From a virus (Duplodnaviria > Caudoviricetes): a DNA stretch of 28,182 bases. Numbering within the stretch: the stretch's first letter is position 1; each line of letters opens with the position of its first letter. The notes beneath the pieces are model-generated. The model did no database searches. It was given only the letters and a program-made list of their open reading frames with translations, and was not told where the DNA came from. This document shows positions 19,429-28,182 of the stretch, piece by piece. The stretch spans positions 1 through 28,182 of IMG/VR virus record IMGVR_UViG_3300011335_000398, one strand, 5' to 3'. Both the position numbers and the translations under genes were made by a program.

Positions 19429-22278
19429 ATGGACACGTTGAATTTTCTTCAGCGGGTTCTACCGTCGGCAGGTTTCTATGTCACCACAGTCATCAACCCA
19501 GATGGCAGACGCCAAGGATTCTTTGCCACAGTAGAAGAACTCGCAAAAGCAGTGACTGGTCTTGACCAGCGCGGCAACAACACATACTTCGCCATCTCGG
19601 CATTCGTCGAGAAGGGGAATAGAAAACAGGAGAACGTCCGGGCGACCAAGGTGATCGCACTGGATGTCGATTGTGGAGACAGCAAGCCTTACCCCACGTG
19701 GAAAGAAGGACTGGCTGCAACAGGTCGGTTCATCCAGCAGATGGGGCTACCCAAGCCGCTGATCATCCACTCGGGCAACGGGCTGCACGTTTACTGGGTG
19801 CTGACTGAGGAGCTTGAACCTGTGCGGTGGAAGCCGCTGGCCGAGGCCATGAAGGCTGCTGCCAAGGACAAGGGCTTTGAGATTGACCCGGCTGTGCCCG
19901 CCGACTCGGCGCGGGTGCTGCGCCCCGTAGGAACCACCAACCCCAAGAGCGGCACTCAGGTGCGGATGCTCGTTGACGCCCAGCCCGTGGCAGTCGAGCA
20001 GTTGGCTGCTTGCCTATCGGCGTACATGGTGGCTCATCCTGTGAGCCAGTCACGTTCAACATCCAGCAGTCCGTTGGCACAAGCGTTGCAGGTGCAGCAG
20101 GACTTCCCTCCGGCCAACGCAACCGTGATCGCCACCAAGTGCCCGCAGATTGGCTGGGCGGCAAAGAACCAAGGCGATGTAGAGGAACCTTTCTGGTACG
20201 CCATGATCGGTGTAGCTGCACACTGCCAAGACCCAGAGGCCACAGCCATATCGTGGTCAGATCAGCACCCCGGATACAACGCCAGCGAGACGCTGCGCAA
20301 GCTATCACATTGGAAAACGGCAACGACAGGCCCGTCAACCTGCAAGAAGTTTGAGGAGCTTCGGCCTACTGGCTGCAAGGGTTGCAAGTTCAAAGACAAG
20401 GTGGGCACCCCGGCCCGACTCGGTATCCAATACCTCGAAGTCGCGCCATCAACCACCGCCCCTGACACCGCAGCACATGATGTCCCACTGCCCCGCCCAT
20501 TCAAGCGCACTGCTGACGGTATCAAGATGACCGTGGACGAGACAGACATCGACGTGTGCAAGTTCGACATCTACCCCGTGGGCTACGGCAGGGACGAGTC
20601 GCTTGGCTACGAGACGGTGCGCTTCCACTGGAACCGTCCGCACCGTGGGTGGCAAGAACTTGTGATGCGCCAAGCCCTGCTGACCGAGGGCCACCGCGAT
20701 TTCGCCACGGTGCTTGCTGACCAAGGCATCGTTCTCCTCAACCGTAACCAAACAGGATATTTCCAAATCATGCTGCGCTCATATATGGACGAGTTGCGGC
20801 AGAAACGTGCGATGACAAACCTGTACGCCACGATGGGTTGGAAGGAAAACTTTTCCCAGTTTGTCATCGGGGACACGGTTCTGCGTCGCAATACTGATGG
20901 CTCCGTCAGTGAAGAATCAATCACGCTGGCCTCCGGCTCTGCTCGGTTGGGCCATGAACTCTGGCATACCGCTGGGTCGATGGACGCATGGGTGAACTTC
21001 ACCGCGCTGCTCGACAAGGCCGACCTCCGGGCGCACATGTTCGCGCTGGCCGTGGGTTTCTCTGGCCCGCTGTATGCGTTCACTGGCCTCAAGGGTTTGA
21101 CCGTCTCGCTTTACGGCCCGACAGGTGGCGGCAAGTCACTGGCCCAGATGTGGATTCAGTCCATCTATGGCAACCCGGACAAGCTGCACTTCGCTGCCAA
21201 GTTCACGCAGAACTCGCTGTTCGGTCGCATGGGTCTGTACTCCCACATGCCGATGACCATCGACGAAGTGACCATGATGGACAACAAGGAGGTGGGCGAC
21301 TTCGCGTACTGGGTGAGTCAGGGTCGGGACAAGGCCCGCATGAACCGCAACGCTGAAGAACGTGACGCCAAGACGTGGGCGTTGCCAGTCATCGTATCCA
21401 CCAACAAGTCTATGAATTCCAAGCTGATCGCCAGCGGGCTGGACACCGATGCGCAGTTGGCCCGTATCCTCGAAGTCAGCGTACCACCAAGCAGGCTGTT
21501 CACCAAGGACAGCACGGCTGGCCGCAAAATCTACGAGTTCATCAACGCCAACTACGGTCACGTCGGTCGTGAGTTCATCAAGCGGCTGCTGGAGTTGGGC
21601 GAGACAGGCATCCGCGCTGCCATTGCGCAGGCCACCGAGGACTTCCGGGGTAAGTACAAGGCACAGTTCTCTGGTGAGGAACGCTTCTGGGAGCAGTCCA
21701 TCATCCTTGCTGATCTGGCTGCACGGCTGGCGAAAGAGTGGGGCTTGATCGCCTATGACCACAAGGATGGGATCGAGTGGGTGCTGGCGCAGGTGGGTGC
21801 CATTCGCCGTGCTGTATCCGATTTCAAGATTGATGCGTTCGACCTGCTGACCGAGTACCTCAACGAGAACTCTGACGCCACGCTGACTGTTACCCAGACG
21901 GGAACCAACAAGCCGATGGTGGACTTCAGCCGTGTGCCCCGTGGTGAACTGCGGGTGCGCTTCGAGATGTACCGCAAGACAAATGGCGACGTGTTCACAC
22001 ATGGCACTGTGATGCTTGACCGCACCCACTTCCGTCGCTGGCTGGCGCAGCGCGGCGCAGACTACAAGACGTTCATGGGTGAGATGCAGGACGAGAGTGT
22101 GCTCGCCTCGCCGAAGTCCAACAAGGCGTACCTCGGCAAAGACTCACCGATCAAACTGGGCCAGTCCTATGTGATCGGCGTGAACCTCACGCACCCACGG
22201 TTGCAGGGTATCCTGAGCGACGCAGACCAAGCCATCGAAGACATGGCCTACGGTCAACTCAAGATGATCACTCCGTAA
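19429..22278 (+). CDS. Primase-helicase fusion (AEP/RepB-like primase, Cys cluster, DUF927-type helicase), 949 aa
   Basis: LDVD and HSGNGLHVYW primase motifs, RVLRP.GT.N.K, C..CKGC, Walker A GPTGGGKS, Walker B TIDE. Confidence 0.9.
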   Translation: MDTLNFLQRVLPSAGFYVTTVINPDGRRQGFFATVEELAKAVTGLDQRGNNTYFAISAFVEKGNRKQENVRATKVIALDVDCGDSKPYPTWKEGLAATGRFIQQMGLPKPLIIHSGNGLHVYWVLTEELEPVRWKPLAEAMKAAAKDKGFEIDPAVPADSARVLRPVGTTNPKSGTQVRMLVDAQPVAVEQLAACLSAYMVAHPVSQSRSTSSSPLAQALQVQQDFPPANATVIATKCPQIGWAAKNQGDVEEPFWYAMIGVAAHCQDPEATAISWSDQHPGYNASETLRKLSHWKTATTGPSTCKKFEELRPTGCKGCKFKDKVGTPARLGIQYLEVAPSTTAPDTAAHDVPLPRPFKRTADGIKMTVDETDIDVCKFDIYPVGYGRDESLGYETVRFHWNRPHRGWQELVMRQALLTEGHRDFATVLADQGIVLLNRNQTGYFQIMLRSYMDELRQKRAMTNLYATMGWKENFSQFVIGDTVLRRNTDGSVSEESITLASGSARLGHELWHTAGSMDAWVNFTALLDKADLRAHMFALAVGFSGPLYAFTGLKGLTVSLYGPTGGGKSLAQMWIQSIYGNPDKLHFAAKFTQNSLFGRMGLYSHMPMTIDEVTMMDNKEVGDFAYWVSQGRDKARMNRNAEERDAKTWALPVIVSTNKSMNSKLIASGLDTDAQLARILEVSVPPSRLFTKDSTAGRKIYEFINANYGHVGREFIKRLLELGETGIRAAIAQATEDFRGKYKAQFSGEERFWEQSIILADLAARLAKEWGLIAYDHKDGIEWVLAQVGAIRRAVSDFKIDAFDLLTEYLNENSDATLTVTQTGTNKPMVDFSRVPRGELRVRFEMYRKTNGDVFTHGTVMLDRTHFRRWLAQRGADYKTFMGEMQDESVLASPKSNKAYLGKDSPIKLGQSYVIGVNLTHPRLQGILSDADQAIEDMAYGQLKMITP

Positions 22279-25200
22279 CGCCGTACAGTTCGAGGATACG
22301 CTCAGTCTCAGGCCGCATCGCTCTTGGTGCGGCCTTCAGGTACCGCTCTGTTGCTGTGCGTTGTGCTTCCCGCAGCGCACGGTTGGCTGAACCCTCGAAG
22401 CTGCGAATCTCAAGGCCAGTACCCTTGGCCGCATCGTTCCAGTCCTTGACCATCTGCACCACTTCGCGGGCACGGTCGTTGTCCTTGGCGATCTTGGCAC
22501 CGACATACAAGCCACGATACGTTGCAGCAACATCCTTCTGATAGTCTCCGATCCGCTTGGACATCCGCACCACGTCGTTCTCTGCCACAGCGGAGGCTGG
22601 GTAGAAGCCCAGCGCACGGGTGAGCATGGTGCCCAGATGTAGATCGTCGCTGACCACGAAGCCCTTCTGACTGATGATGGCACCTGCATTGTTGTAGGCC
22701 ACCATGTCTCCCAGCGCACGGAGCATGGCAACCGGCGATTCGCGCAGTATCTTGTTGAATGAGGTCTTGTCGTCCAGAACTCTGACAGTCTCCAGTCCGT
22801 AGCGGGCCACGTCTGCTGACATTGCTACAGCACCTTGCAGGAAGGATGCCACTGGCCCTGCGATCTCGATCAGTTCACGACCCACGTTTGCACCAGCCAG
22901 TGCGATGCCAGTGCCGGGGATGATGTTGGACAGCGATACCCGGTCGGCCACGTTGGCAGGCGTGATGGTGTTGAGCAGGCCGCGCATCAGGATAGGTGTC
23001 ATGCCGGGAGCGATAGCGTCCACAGCTTCGGCCAGCGTCTTCTCGGCGCTGCCCTTCCAGATTTTGCTCGGGCCAAGTCCAAGTGCTTGCGCAATGGTGT
23101 CGATGATGTCCATCAAGTCTTCGGCGAAGGGCAGGCCCTTCAGACCGGCGAACATGGCGAGGATGCCCAGCGCCAGCAGTTGCTCTTTGCGAGGCAGCGC
23201 GGCTAGCATTTGGATGCTGTTGACCGGGAACATCTTGAACATGAACAGGAACTGGCGCACGTCGCCACGGAACATGGCGGGCCGGTTGTACATGGCGTAC
23301 TCGCCCAGCGTGTTGTCGATCATGTCCACAGCGAACTTGTCGGCCACCTCGAAAGCTGTTGCTGCGTCTTTGCCTTCGGCCAGAGCGCGTGCATAGGACA
23401 TGCGGAACGCAGCCAAACCTGTTGCACGGCGGCTGTGCTGCTCGGTGTAGTTAAACAGCGACATCCATGTCTCAGCCGCAGCCTTCGTGGCACCGGTGCG
23501 GAACTTGCCCCGCGCAGAACCCAGCAACGAGTTGGTCAATGCCGCCTGCATGGTGCCGCCGCCGACCTCCTTTTGCATGAACCGGGCCTCAGCTTCGGTG
23601 AACCCGGAGGCAGCGAGCTTGGCGGGATCGGCCAGCATGTCGTCCCAGAACTTCACCTCGCTCTGCCCGAAGCCCTTTGTGGAGCCGATGGCGCGGCTAA
23701 TTTCTACCGATGACATACCCCAGCCGAAGCCGCCACCGAAGGCGTTCTTCTGGTTGTACCCGGAGAACGAGGGCAGCACATTGGTTGCCAGCGACAGGTA
23801 GTTCAAGATGGCCGTGGCAAACGACGCGCCCATGAACGCAAAAGTTGTTGCAGTGCGGATGGCTGACGCTGCTTCGCCGGAAGCAAAGTCGGTGTAGTCC
23901 ACGTTGGACTGGGATTCCATGAAGGCCACAGCGCGACGACCACGATCCTTGAATCGGTTGCCCATGACTGGCGATTCTTTGGTCACGAACGTGTAGTGGT
24001 AGTCATCGAACTCCCGCTTGGCCGCAAACTTCTGAGCCTCGGGTGCAGTCGGGTCTTTCTCAGCAGCTTCCCACGCAGCCTTGCGGCGGTCGTACTCTCC
24101 CTTGTCACCGAACCACAAGCGGATGGAGTCTGGGTCGGCGTCGTCAAACAAGCGGTCGAGACGGTGGCGGTTCTGCTTGCGTGCCACAGTTGATGCGGTT
24201 GACTCAAGATGTTGCGACACGTACTTGATGGTGTTCGGGTCTTCACCGGGAGTGCCTGCCCGCTTCAGGCGGGTACGCGCCTTGGCGTTTTGCTGGGTCA
24301 TGCCCACGATCAGACGCTCACGCTCCTCTGGTGTGATGCTGATGGAGAAGCGAGTGATCGCGGAGATGATCTCGTTGAGGTTGGCCTCTGCCGTGGTGGA
24401 GACTGTTTCACGGGATGTCTCAGACTGTGCAACAAGTTTGACTTTCTTGATCACGAACTCGGTGCCGTCCAGCACTTCCATCTCGAAGCCGTCTCTCACG
24501 TCGTCAAACAGCCCTTGGATGCGCTCGGCCATCGCCTCAGCCTCAGCGCGGTTCTCCACTTGCGAGAACAGAAGTTGCTGGCGGTACTGCTCCGACACCT
24601 TGTAGATGCGCCCGGTGCGGGGATCAACAGCTTGGATGCGCACCTGCCACGAACCCTCACGACCGAACGGCACGTAGCCACCAGCGATGGATCGCTTGGC
24701 AAGCAGTTCAGCATCGGTCTTGCTCAACTCAAACAGAGCCAAGTTCTGGATGGCTTGCTGGATGGCGAAGCGGTCAGGGCCGGAGCGCGGGATGTTGGAG
24801 TCTTTCTTCAGCGCCTCGATACCGCCGAACACGTCGTCGGCCTGCGCTTTCTCGAAGAACGCCTGCACGTCTGCATTGCGGTCGGTGTCGCGGCCCAGTA
24901 CAGCGGCATTGAACTTCTTGATGAAGTCGTTGGCAGCGGCCACGGACTCGCGCTTGGTCATCATCACGCCACTGGCGTCAATGCTGGAGCCTTCGGCGCG
25001 GAGCGATAGGTACTTGTCTTCGACGGTCTTGAGGAACGATCTGTCGTTCTCAGTCAGGGCACGGTCGAGGAACCGCTGCACAACACGCTCTACGTTGTCG
25101 CGCTCACCCTTGGCCGCAGCGAAGTTTGCCAACAGCATGTCGGTGGCCGACTTGTTCATGGTGTCGCGCACCTCGTTGTACATGACCCACTCAGGACTCT

Positions 25201-28182
25201 GGTCAGTCAGGTCAGGCATGGCCGAGTAGGACTGCTCAACATCGACAAGCATACTGGGCGCGTCGAGGCGCTTCTGGTACTCACGCTCGATGGCCTTGCG
25301 CTCTTTGTCGTTGACGGCGGTGTCGAGTTCCAGATCACGCTCGGCCCGGATTGCTGCGCGGCCTGCCTCGGTCATGGGGCGCGGCACACTGATGGTGTAT
25401 TTGATGCCCTTCTTAAAGTCTTCCAGCGTGAACTTGCCACGGGCTGCAAGGATGTCGTATACCTCTTGGTTCAGGCGGGCTTCGCCACCCTCGATGGTGA
25501 TCAGGCTACCCATCTTGCGCAATTCAGCTTCGGTCAAGTTGCCCAGCTTCACACGGCTGGTGACGTTAAGCATGGCCGACGTGCTGGCAATCTGCGCCTC
25601 GGATGCGCCCCGTGTGAACCCGCGACCCAGCACTTCTACGGCGGGGGACAGCACGGTATCCATCATCTTGTTGTACTGCGCACGCAGTTGCGCTGCGTTC
25701 TTGCTGGTGTCGCGGAAGATGTCGTACAGGCGGCGGTAGCCTTGGTTCTCACGAGCCGCATAGTTCATCGACTTGAGTTCACCGATCAGGCGGTTGGTGT
25801 AGTCGCCGATGTTGATGCCACGATCCTTGGCCTGTTGGAACAAGTTGGTGATGTCGAACAACTTGGTGCTGCGCTGGCCGAAGGCATCCATTGCGGCCAC
25901 TCGGTTTTGCTCGTCGTAGTACTCACCGGCCAAAGCGAAGCGGCCAGAACCGTCCGGGTCGTTGATGCCTTCGATTGCAGCCATGCGCTGGGCCATCGCC
26001 TTGAAGTCCATGAACGTGCCACTTGTTGTGCCGTTGCGGACGTAGCGGCGGGACTGGCTGACCAGATAGCGGGCAGTGTCATCGTCGAAGCGCACACCAA
26101 TCTTGTTCAGGGCGTTCTTGATGGCGTTCCAGAACCGGGCGATGATGTTGGTGTCCAACATCCCGGCAAAGTCAGCAAGGTATTCCTCAGTGGCTTCTTG
26201 GCGCGACATCTTGCGGGCCTTCATGGCAGTGTCCACAGCAGCCTTGACCTTGGCACTGGAGTTGTACACCGCATCAAGGGCGGCATTCAGTTCCTTCGCA
26301 GTCAGCAGACCACGGAAGCCGAAGTGGCCCAGCGTCTCGTGCGCCAGCACAAACTTCAGTTGCTGCTCAGTGGCAACCCGGTCAGCGAAGATGATGACAT
26401 TGCCGTCACCGAACGAGTACCCCACAGCATTGGCCGTGTCAAAGTCACCCTGCGGGCGCGAGGCCACTGCCTGCGCATACAGCGTGGGGTTCTTGGCTTT
26501 GAAGTCTGCTTGGTTGCGATAGACCTGCACCTTCGGCTTGATGCCCAGCTTGGACAGGAACGCACTGACCAACATCTTCACACGTCCCAGCGGAATTGGA
26601 TTGTTGACCGGCGTGCCGTCGTCGCGGAAGTAGCGACCATCGCTGAAATCATCAGCGCGACCAATGTTGAAGTCGTCCAAAGAGAACGGCGCTTCGTAGT
26701 CGTCGTCTGCTGCGATGTTGTCCTCGTCGATGATCTGTTCACGCTCGGCCTGCACTGCGTCCGTCACTTCCTCAGTGGCGACACGGAAGATACCTTTGAT
26801 CGTGCCGGTGTATGGGTTGCCACTTGCATCGAAGTAGTCAGCCAGCATGTTGCCGTTCTGATCGACAAACAACTCCATATCTGCGGCGCGGGCAGCAGCC
26901 CACAGGTCACGCAACTTCTTGATGGCGTTCCCGCGCTGGGTCTTGTTCATGGGAACCGTCTTGGTGTTCAGTTCCTTGATGTAGTCGGACAGCGCCGTGG
27001 CGGCGTTGGAGCGGGTGTCGTTCTTTATGTTGTCACCGGCCTTGCCGATAATGCCGCTGACTGGGCCGACGCTGGCCTTGTACTTCTTGACCGTATCGGC
27101 TGGCAAGTTGGCGACGCGCAGTTGGCCGGAGTCCAGCATCTTGGTGGCTGCATCAATCGACAAGCCCTTGACCACGGTGGTAATCTGGGGCAGCAGGCCG
27201 CGCCGGGTGGCGTAATCAAACCACGGCTTGGAGTCGCCTTTGGTAGTGCCACGGGTGTAGACCGCCTCAACAGACGGCAACGTGTTGACCAGTTCAAGCA
27301 GCGCAGTGTCGATGGCGTTTTGTTGGGCGTCGGTGAAGCTGGTCGTCGCCAGCAATTCACGGGCACGCAGAACTGCGGCCTTGGTGTTGGTTTCTTCGCT
27401 GGTGAAATAAGCAAACTCAACCACGGTGCCAATGGCATCACGGAAGTCACGGATGTCGGTGGCCGACTCAGCCGAAGCAAACTCGCTGTTAACCAGTTGG
27501 AGTGGGGTTTCTTCTGCGTCGCCAAGGATTTCCTCGGCCCGCTGCATGGTGGCCTTGCCAGCGTCCACATCCTGACGCCACTGGGTGCGCACAGGTGCGG
27601 GCAGATCGTTGAACGCCGGAGCGCCCTCGGGCTTCATGTCCTCCCACGCTTCGGCGGGAGGAAGGGCTTCAACCTTTACCGGAGCGGGGACGGCGGCGGG
27701 TGCCGCCACGGCTTTTGGGGGCTTGGGGGCCTCCTTCTTTACTTCTGGCGCTGTTTTCCCGCGCTTGAGAGCGATGCCGCGACCGCCTGCTTTAGCGCCG
27801 CCTGCTTTGACTTCGGTCGCGGGCTTGACCCCAGCGTCCCCCCCGCCTTGTACTCCCGCATTATCTTGCTGACGTTTTGCGACACTACCTTGCTTGAGCT
27901 TCCCTTTTTGAGTGGCACTTGGAGTCTCCTTGACTTCGACCGCAGCGACACCGGCCTGCTTCTTCAGGCCACGCTGGGTACGGGGTTTAGACACCGGCGC
28001 TTTGGGCGCAGCCGGAGCGGGTTTAACTGTTTCCTTGCGGCCAGCAGACTTGAGCGCGGCCATTGAGGGCTGGCCCTCTTGGGTGATCAGCGGCAACTGA
28101 GCACGGCGCTGGGCAGCAGTCTGTGGAATCTCGGCTGTAGCTGCGGGTAAACCCGTACTCACACCACGGCGCAGACCCTCGG
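22268..28182 (-). CDS. Very large polyvalent / internal-virion-type protein, 5' truncated
   Basis: Frame stays open past GTG 28162 to the edge (EGLRRG); HETLGH..G...EE zincin-like motif; YVPFGREG resembles the PLxRFG motif; hydrophobic helical C-terminus. Confidence 0.75.
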   Translation of the reverse strand, partial: EGLRRGVSTGLPAATAEIPQTAAQRRAQLPLITQEGQPSMAALKSAGRKETVKPAPAAPKAPVSKPRTQRGLKKQAGVAAVEVKETPSATQKGKLKQGSVAKRQQDNAGVQGGGDAGVKPATEVKAGGAKAGGRGIALKRGKTAPEVKKEAPKPPKAVAAPAAVPAPVKVEALPPAEAWEDMKPEGAPAFNDLPAPVRTQWRQDVDAGKATMQRAEEILGDAEETPLQLVNSEFASAESATDIRDFRDAIGTVVEFAYFTSEETNTKAAVLRARELLATTSFTDAQQNAIDTALLELVNTLPSVEAVYTRGTTKGDSKPWFDYATRRGLLPQITTVVKGLSIDAATKMLDSGQLRVANLPADTVKKYKASVGPVSGIIGKAGDNIKNDTRSNAATALSDYIKELNTKTVPMNKTQRGNAIKKLRDLWAAARAADMELFVDQNGNMLADYFDASGNPYTGTIKGIFRVATEEVTDAVQAEREQIIDEDNIAADDDYEAPFSLDDFNIGRADDFSDGRYFRDDGTPVNNPIPLGRVKMLVSAFLSKLGIKPKVQVYRNQADFKAKNPTLYAQAVASRPQGDFDTANAVGYSFGDGNVIIFADRVATEQQLKFVLAHETLGHFGFRGLLTAKELNAALDAVYNSSAKVKAAVDTAMKARKMSRQEATEEYLADFAGMLDTNIIARFWNAIKNALNKIGVRFDDDTARYLVSQSRRYVRNGTTSGTFMDFKAMAQRMAAIEGINDPDGSGRFALAGEYYDEQNRVAAMDAFGQRSTKLFDITNLFQQAKDRGINIGDYTNRLIGELKSMNYAARENQGYRRLYDIFRDTSKNAAQLRAQYNKMMDTVLSPAVEVLGRGFTRGASEAQIASTSAMLNVTSRVKLGNLTEAELRKMGSLITIEGGEARLNQEVYDILAARGKFTLEDFKKGIKYTISVPRPMTEAGRAAIRAERDLELDTAVNDKERKAIEREYQKRLDAPSMLVDVEQSYSAMPDLTDQSPEWVMYNEVRDTMNKSATDMLLANFAAAKGERDNVERVVQRFLDRALTENDRSFLKTVEDKYLSLRAEGSSIDASGVMMTKRESVAAANDFIKKFNAAVLGRDTDRNADVQAFFEKAQADDVFGGIEALKKDSNIPRSGPDRFAIQQAIQNLALFELSKTDAELLAKRSIAGGYVPFGREGSWQVRIQAVDPRTGRIYKVSEQYRQQLLFSQVENRAEAEAMAERIQGLFDDVRDGFEMEVLDGTEFVIKKVKLVAQSETSRETVSTTAEANLNEIISAITRFSISITPEERERLIVGMTQQNAKARTRLKRAGTPGEDPNTIKYVSQHLESTASTVARKQNRHRLDRLFDDADPDSIRLWFGDKGEYDRRKAAWEAAEKDPTAPEAQKFAAKREFDDYHYTFVTKESPVMGNRFKDRGRRAVAFMESQSNVDYTDFASGEAASAIRTATTFAFMGASFATAILNYLSLATNVLPSFSGYNQKNAFGGGFGWGMSSVEISRAIGSTKGFGQSEVKFWDDMLADPAKLAASGFTEAEARFMQKEVGGGTMQAALTNSLLGSARGKFRTGATKAAAETWMSLFNYTEQHSRRATGLAAFRMSYARALAEGKDAATAFEVADKFAVDMIDNTLGEYAMYNRPAMFRGDVRQFLFMFKMFPVNSIQMLAALPRKEQLLALGILAMFAGLKGLPFAEDLMDIIDTIAQALGLGPSKIWKGSAEKTLAEAVDAIAPGMTPILMRGLLNTITPANVADRVSLSNIIPGTGIALAGANVGRELIEIAGPVASFLQGAVAMSADVARYGLETVRVLDDKTSFNKILRESPVAMLRALGDMVAYNNAGAIISQKGFVVSDDLHLGTMLTRALGFYPASAVAENDVVRMSKRIGDYQKDVAATYRGLYVGAKIAKDNDRAREVVQMVKDWNDAAKGTGLEIRSFEGSANRALREAQRTATERYLKAAPRAMRPETERILELYGVTE
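27739..27918 (-). CDS. Nested out-of-frame small basic protein (59 aa), DUF6496-like
   Basis: SD AAGGAG (27931-27926) 7 nt before GTG; MPLKKGSSSKVVSQNVSKIMREYKAGGTLGSSPRPKSKQAALKQAVAASLSSAGKQRQK. Confidence 0.7.
   Translation of the reverse strand: MPLKKGSSSKVVSQNVSKIMREYKAGGTLGSSPRPKSKQAALKQAVAASLSSAGKQRQK

Follow-up and report, generated by a model that had tools for sequence, protein, structure and literature searches.

The common explanation for overlapping genes is that a new gene has been overprinted on an old one, and the locus described here raises the question of whether a small gene with relatives elsewhere can instead lie intact, out of frame, inside a much larger one. The locus is found in a 28,182-nucleotide stretch of Caudoviricetes DNA (IMG/VR record IMGVR_UViG_3300011335_000398), referred to as a whole as the window, which carries genes for terminase, DNA polymerase, helicase and primase-like proteins in addition to a giant gene. 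Inside this giant gene, a preliminary description of the DNA had noted that AAGGAG-N7-GTG opens a 59-amino-acid open reading frame (ORF) on the same strand in another frame, and we reproduced both its coordinates and its translation (Table 1). The frame is +1 relative to the giant ORF. We confirm the presence of a selected gene nested there out of frame, and we find that the site is a slot with three alleles, holding either this gene (family A, MPLKKG type), an unrelated small gene (family B, MPFKS type) or nothing.

The preliminary description had held that the ORF is a real gene rather than a shadow of its host, and that a lack of significant homologs would speak against this. Homologs were found in 13 database proteins and in 428 related viral stretches among the 600 scanned, and residues 1-22 of the nested protein match phrog_2423 significantly (E=2.5e-6), over positions 1-22 only of that 52-position profile. 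Thus, the family named in the preliminary description was recovered in its phrog_2423 part, while its DUF6496 part fell short: the match to PF20106 over residues 9-57 (E=0.0044, 17.8 bits) lies below the 24-bit gathering cut-off, and at E<=0.1 the profile matches 5 of the 21 family-A members, none better than the window's copy. We therefore leave the nested protein unassigned to DUF6496 and describe family A as phrog_2423-like at its N-terminus and DUF6496-like in its remaining part. When genomic context was surveyed across the 80 best viral loci for the nested protein, 71 were stand-alone, in agreement with the expectation that such genes normally stand alone, and nine were nested within ORFs of 1,874 to 2,717 codons, with an identical relative frame in every case. 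The product has 59 residues, 13 of them Lys or Arg and one acidic (6.2 kDa, pI 11.3), and is predicted to form a two-helix hairpin (residues 7-24 and 38-52; mean predicted local distance difference test score, pLDDT, 74).

Selection on the small frame is visible in the positions of the substitutions. Over 54 gap-free codons of nine nested copies, the proportion of nonsynonymous differences (pN) is below that of synonymous differences (pS) in 36 of 36 pairs when the small frame is read, and above it in 33 of 36 when the host frame is read, the pairs being non-independent in both cases. The codon-position comparison proposed in the preliminary description gave the same answer: between the window and its relative L001, differences at host codon positions 1, 2 and 3 number 16, 1 and 1 within the nested 54 codons, versus 3, 1 and 19 in the 60 codons upstream, and an excess at position 1 over position 3 occurs in 6 of 6 A-A pairs inside the nested stretch but in 1 of 222 windows outside it. 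Substitutions therefore sit at the wobble positions of the small gene, whose frame is under purifying selection. In six relatives (L002-L007), the small protein is 79-83% identical to that of the window, whereas the giants share 30-38% identity in their conserved parts.

Nesting is not an assembly artefact, since contigs from two sequencing runs span the nested site with zero differences (X5, possibly the source sample of the window, and X8), and since the relative L256 has a complete giant frame, which aligns to all 1,970 visible residues with 93% identity and no gaps and has 710 more codons upstream. A sequencing frameshift, which the preliminary description had raised as a way in which the giant ORF might really begin downstream of the small gene, is thereby excluded. 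Three RNA runs share just 6% of the window's words.

A search for relatives using the giant protein alone uncovered the second allele. L081 (93% identical), L085 and L087 are without gene A and carry another basic ORF of 54-56 amino acids behind an equivalent Shine-Dalgarno (SD) motif and GTG. Between the window and L081, DNA identity ends right after GTGCC and returns right after the stop codon, an exact gene swap. This family B matches phrog_1375 weakly, and no relationship between the A and B profiles was detectable (hhalign probability 1%, E=0.054). A common ancestry of the two families, considered because of a gap-free 27-residue resemblance, was rejected as this resemblance is not significant. 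B is nested in 23 of the 80 best B loci, in the +1 frame every time, within host frames of at least 641 codons. Two of the B-bearing giants (L131 and L156) have no link to other giants at the threshold used, and in L022 and L023 gene A is nested in a 2,536-amino-acid LPD38-bearing protein that resembles other hosts across the overlap only.

To define occupancy, we fetched 160 loci with the conserved giant domain together with the window; 135 were scored and 112 remained after removal of duplicates, with three B calls made by eye. Among these 112 distinct giants, 94 are occupied (63 by B and 31 by A), 18 are empty and none holds both; 26 loci, among them the split, empty L255, were dropped because of short flanks or a broken frame, which slightly inflates the occupancy. 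A FastTree host tree requires 27 state changes, or 17 when only A and B rows are counted, and several times A and B lie on sister tips. In L226, the segment has been lost in frame beside close relatives bearing A or B. No third occupant family was recognised in the 29 empty slots examined, save three divergent B copies. In one further sequencing run (X14), a low-depth contig departs from the window exactly at the nested stop (27739), and its loose end resembles the C-terminal part of a B gene; the A allele is followed by other contigs of this run, which hints weakly that a single sample may contain both.

The host reading of the stretch bears the marks of this arrangement. In stand-alone A copies, the -1 shadow frame over 40 codons is stop-free in 0 of 63, with a mean of 3.3 stops, and in stand-alone B it is open in 1 of 48. 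Where no stop would result, wobble T is used in 0.6% of cases in 29 nested A copies versus 20% in 63 stand-alone ones, and in 2.7% versus 19% for B; the window's copy has no wobble T in 58 codons. Host residues Cys, Trp, Phe, Tyr and His together make up 0.1% of nested stretches and 5.0% of their flanks. By avoiding wobble T, the nested copies spare the host linker stops, Cys and aromatic residues; thus, the small gene has been recoded in such a way that its stretch reads as a hydrophilic linker in the giant. In the window this linker is rich in Gln, Gly and Lys and contains none of Cys, Trp, Phe, Tyr or His, which bears out the suggestion in the preliminary description that a low-complexity host segment tolerates dual coding, and the giant frame stays intact both where the segment is replaced (L081) and where it is deleted (L226). 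Both frames are under selection, and the signal in the outer frame exceeds mere stop avoidance. The small ORF lies wholly inside another, and both frames are open and conserved in relatives. Homologs, a shadow frame closed in stand-alone copies and a top-ranked SD duplex (see below) together set the nested ORF apart from chance.

We hold with high confidence, from comparative sequence evidence, that this is a selected nested gene, likely translated separately by internal initiation, in a slot filled by A, B or nothing. Late mRNA would be translated end to end into a protein of ~2,680 amino acids in which the stretch forms a dispensable disordered linker, and ribosomes would also initiate internally on the same mRNA to make a separate 6-kDa basic two-helix protein, with related phages exchanging alleles through homologous recombination in the giant-gene sequence on either side. 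Several results weigh against parts of this reading. Position alone can account for mutual exclusion at a single site. In whole records, B occurs in 0 of 15 with nested A, yet a DUF6496-type match lies elsewhere in the record in 4 of 20 with nested B and in 3 of 15 with an empty slot (six of these, including all four with nested B, were fetched and all are stand-alone), and the four B-nested records weaken a strict one-or-other equivalence. Neither A nor B occurs anywhere in five records with an empty slot and a completeness of at least 90%, by a search that missed one divergent B copy (G044), so that the product is accessory and not essential in the group. Finally, no solved or named structure matches either family, leaving charge and gene neighbourhood as the grounds for guessing a function: the A and B family profiles had no match under E=0.1 in PDB sequence searches, the family-A model had none at E<=0.001 with Foldseek against PDB and BFVD, and the sole matches of family B in the ESM Atlas were viral clusters without names.

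On that basis of charge and neighbourhood, we tentatively propose, at somewhat less than even confidence, that the small protein may be an accessory nucleic-acid-binding or head-assembly protein made late, with A and B interchangeable. Stand-alone copies are located in head and tail modules. Of the stand-alone A loci with a scanned upstream neighbour, 7 of 7 have gene A following a portal gene, and 5 of the 8 A loci scanned have a GroES-like gene downstream (43 of 116 listed neighbours were covered). In the GenBank phage set, searched for cultured phages with the nested form, the A query had no match, and the B query retrieved nine records, of which the three opened all carry B stand-alone. 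A translated selfish or conflict-driven passenger, such as a host-takeover or counter-defence peptide under balancing selection, would be no head component and would be shielded from deletion by an essential gene. Repeated swaps among near-identical hosts and the existence of empty alleles resemble balancing selection, and a mobile out-of-frame gene hidden in a phage methylase, the ShiLan domain, offers a precedent. We nevertheless regard the passenger as unlikely, as the small protein had no Pfam match beyond DUF6496 and no nuclease or other mobility domain, the in-frame deletion in L226 means that the host gives no real protection, and the head and tail modules are where the stand-alone copies sit.

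How the small protein would be made is indicated by its start site. In 82 of 91 evaluable distinct nested copies of A and B, the start lies at profile position 1 (ATG in 56, GTG in 26), and the other nine have a start codon nearby. An SD-like motif, scored with a permissive pattern, precedes 81 of these 82 but 1,231 of 11,530 control +1 starts (10.7%), and the mean SD duplex, computed with an anti-SD sequence taken from general knowledge, is -9.0 kcal/mol in nested copies versus -2.2 in controls. The window's own start has a duplex of -8.5 kcal/mol, the strongest among the 138 starts that are out of frame in the visible giant ORF. Start regions also fold less than controls (-8.1 vs -13.4). The preliminary description cautioned that AAG GAG also encodes Lys-Glu in the host frame; this caveat is answered by the fact that host residues over the motif and its distance to the start vary between nested copies while the motif itself is kept. 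No sigma-70-like internal promoter was found in 27400-28182. Separate translation by internal initiation at AAGGAG-N7-GTG is, on this evidence, likely.

The same start sites bear on a programmed +1 frameshift out of the giant gene, which would yield an N-terminal product of ~850 amino acids with a basic C-terminal tail. Such an event could account for the single relative frame, +1, shared by all nested copies found, and the B motif does form part of longer proteins (L146, L161 and L171). In those proteins, however, the motif is N-terminal rather than C-terminal; ATG and GTG interchange exactly at the position of the stand-alone initiator Met; an SD conserved 7-9 nucleotides upstream and low local structure indicate initiation; and the upstream sequences compared, in which no formal slippery-site scan was made, differ between lineages except for the SD. 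We consider a frameshift very improbable. Scarcely credible at all is a recently engulfed, untranslated relic retained just for residues that the host protein needs, for although the host frame does constrain the stretch and the segment can be lost (L226), host residues evolve faster than those of the small protein, which stays 79-93% identical across hosts that match the window giant at 30-38% identity (in one case 77%) in their conserved parts, the host accepts replacement by unrelated sequence (L081), and the codon-position pattern flips inside the nested stretch.

Regarding origin, the preliminary description had proposed that the giant gene either grew by reading through a small gene or captured it. 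In relatives with a split giant, B sits 125-241 codons inside the second gene. Fusion of two genes through the small one was thus rejected as the simple origin of the giant, and read-through is not favoured over capture. Nested A copies fall in four places on a 58-column tree, which would fit several independent captures of A, but a single clade, and with it one capture, is not rejected (p value of 0.38 in the approximately unbiased test). A broader proposal, to which we give even weight, is that the site may be an exchangeable gene-in-gene cargo slot in giant ejection-protein genes of aquatic podoviruses, with repeated capture of unrelated small basic proteins, also into unrelated giants, followed by wobble recoding and shuffling of the alleles under balancing selection.

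The giant itself is ~2,660-2,680 amino acids long in the relatives L256 and L081 and matches phrog_11358 and phrog_21376. Its C-terminal ~530 residues align to large proteins of Pseudomonas phages F116, H66 and LKA5 (25% identity, E 2e-20), and the F116 match falls within the p60 coding region. In the accessible part of one source, p60 of F116 is listed as a T7 IVP-D homolog (PMC4819975), so the giant is likely an internal virion (ejection) protein of this kind. Fused and split forms are described there for F116 p60 and H66 gp60 and exist alike in the window giant's family. Unlike that kind, the window giant has no detected methylase domain, and unlike the window giant, p60 and gp60 are not said to hold a nested gene in the same part of the source (PMC4819975).

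Table 1. Positions of the nested gene, its initiation motif and the host gene in the window
Feature	Position	Strand	Details
Nested 59-codon gene, family A (MPLKKG type)	27739..27918	minus	GTG start 27918-27916, TAA stop 27741-27739
Shine-Dalgarno motif AAGGAG	27926..27931	minus	7 nt 5' of GTG; Lys-Glu in host frame
Host giant ORF	22268..28180	minus	1,970 visible codons, open to window end; F116 p60-like
Dual-coded linker segment of giant	27737..27919	minus	visible residues about 88-148

Split forms were seen in L311, L320, L321, L326, L327 and L255, where a shorter giant gene begins 450-560 codons ahead of the conserved domain; because the upstream gene in L311 and L326 is homologous to the N-terminal part of the fused giant, fused and split forms coexist. 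L195 and L324 have one frame break between the nested gene and the conserved domain, which is either an assembly error or a real split. Giant residues 570-623 (window about 26,300-26,470, minus strand) contain a HETLGH motif whose H-E-x-x-G-H is invariant in the family alignment, and a weak Peptidase_M48 match (E=0.086) makes a zincin-like domain possible. An 866-codon open frame runs antisense across the giant gene (25466-28066, plus strand) and is probably a shadow of codon bias, as long antisense frames vary widely among relatives.

The small genes were also met in other settings. In L149, L152 and L157, stand-alone B lies directly downstream of genes for 1,750-2,330-amino-acid proteins, that of L152 matching phrog_21376 like the window's giant, possibly the same pairing of giant and small gene in separated form. 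The B motif forms the N-terminus of longer stand-alone proteins of 224-574 amino acids (L146, L161, L171, L117 and L132), pointing to a portable N-terminal module that perhaps serves as a tag for targeting or binding. Outside the giants, B is nested in a 455-codon acidic ORF (L169:5596-5718) and overlaps the 5' end of a 279-codon frame (L135:8001-8147). Around a stand-alone DUF6496-type gene in L336-L341 lie several other small basic genes (60-120 amino acids), whose families are candidates for further nested occupants.

Embedded phage genes are already known. In the lambda pair Rz/Rz1, too, a small gene lies entirely within a phage late gene in a different frame, and homologous spanin systems occur in embedded and separated architectures; Rz and Rz1 form an obligate interacting pair, and in the accessible part of the source no family has both embedded and separated members (PMC6139136). 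In contrast to Rz/Rz1, family A has nested as well as stand-alone members, its stretch serves the host as a linker that can be dispensed with, and the site alternates between two unrelated genes and an empty state. In spanins, moreover, the inner gene encodes a lipoprotein with a signal peptide and a lipobox Cys and the outer gene a small membrane protein, whereas the 59-amino-acid protein has neither Cys nor a hydrophobic signal and its host exceeds 1,970 amino acids. Closer in some respects is the ShiLan domain, described in the part of the source available as an HNH endonuclease read out of frame and hidden in a phage methylase: like the window's gene, it is inserted, patchy in distribution and started by GTG in another frame, and the host reads through it, as a loop (PMC11855218). 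It differs in being a homing nuclease without a detectable SD, whereas the slot genes encode basic proteins of 45-90 amino acids with a strong SD, occupy 94 of 112 hosts and leave a host frame tuned for linker composition. No HNH match appeared for the nested gene in Pfam or PHROGs searches. Overlapping alternate-frame insertion (OAFI), as far as the available text describes it, is synthetic (bioRxiv 10.1101/2024.11.07.622342), and the nested arrangement is its natural, recurrent and polymorphic counterpart. Members of phrog_2423 and DUF6496, and of phrog_1375 for B, are likewise small, basic and similar in sequence, with no known function, but normally stand alone, unlike the nested copies. 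No description of this nested, swappable arrangement was found in the literature covered, outside of which lay most subscription papers and supplements. What is new here is a family both nested and free, a derived host frame and a three-allele slot.

For these phages, the usual view of overlap is turned around, as the inner gene is the older, homolog-bearing one and the linker of the outer protein is the derived reading. The occupant is exchangeable among two unrelated families and an empty state in near-identical phages, and with more than 90 distinct examples from nature within a single protein family, the cost and benefit of nesting are directly testable. Two common uncharacterised phage microprotein families have been undercounted and are tied to late head or ejection functions. 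If the cargo-slot proposal is true, annotation would miss a whole class of phage microproteins, and some of the low-complexity linker in these giant proteins would be a shadow cast by other genes.

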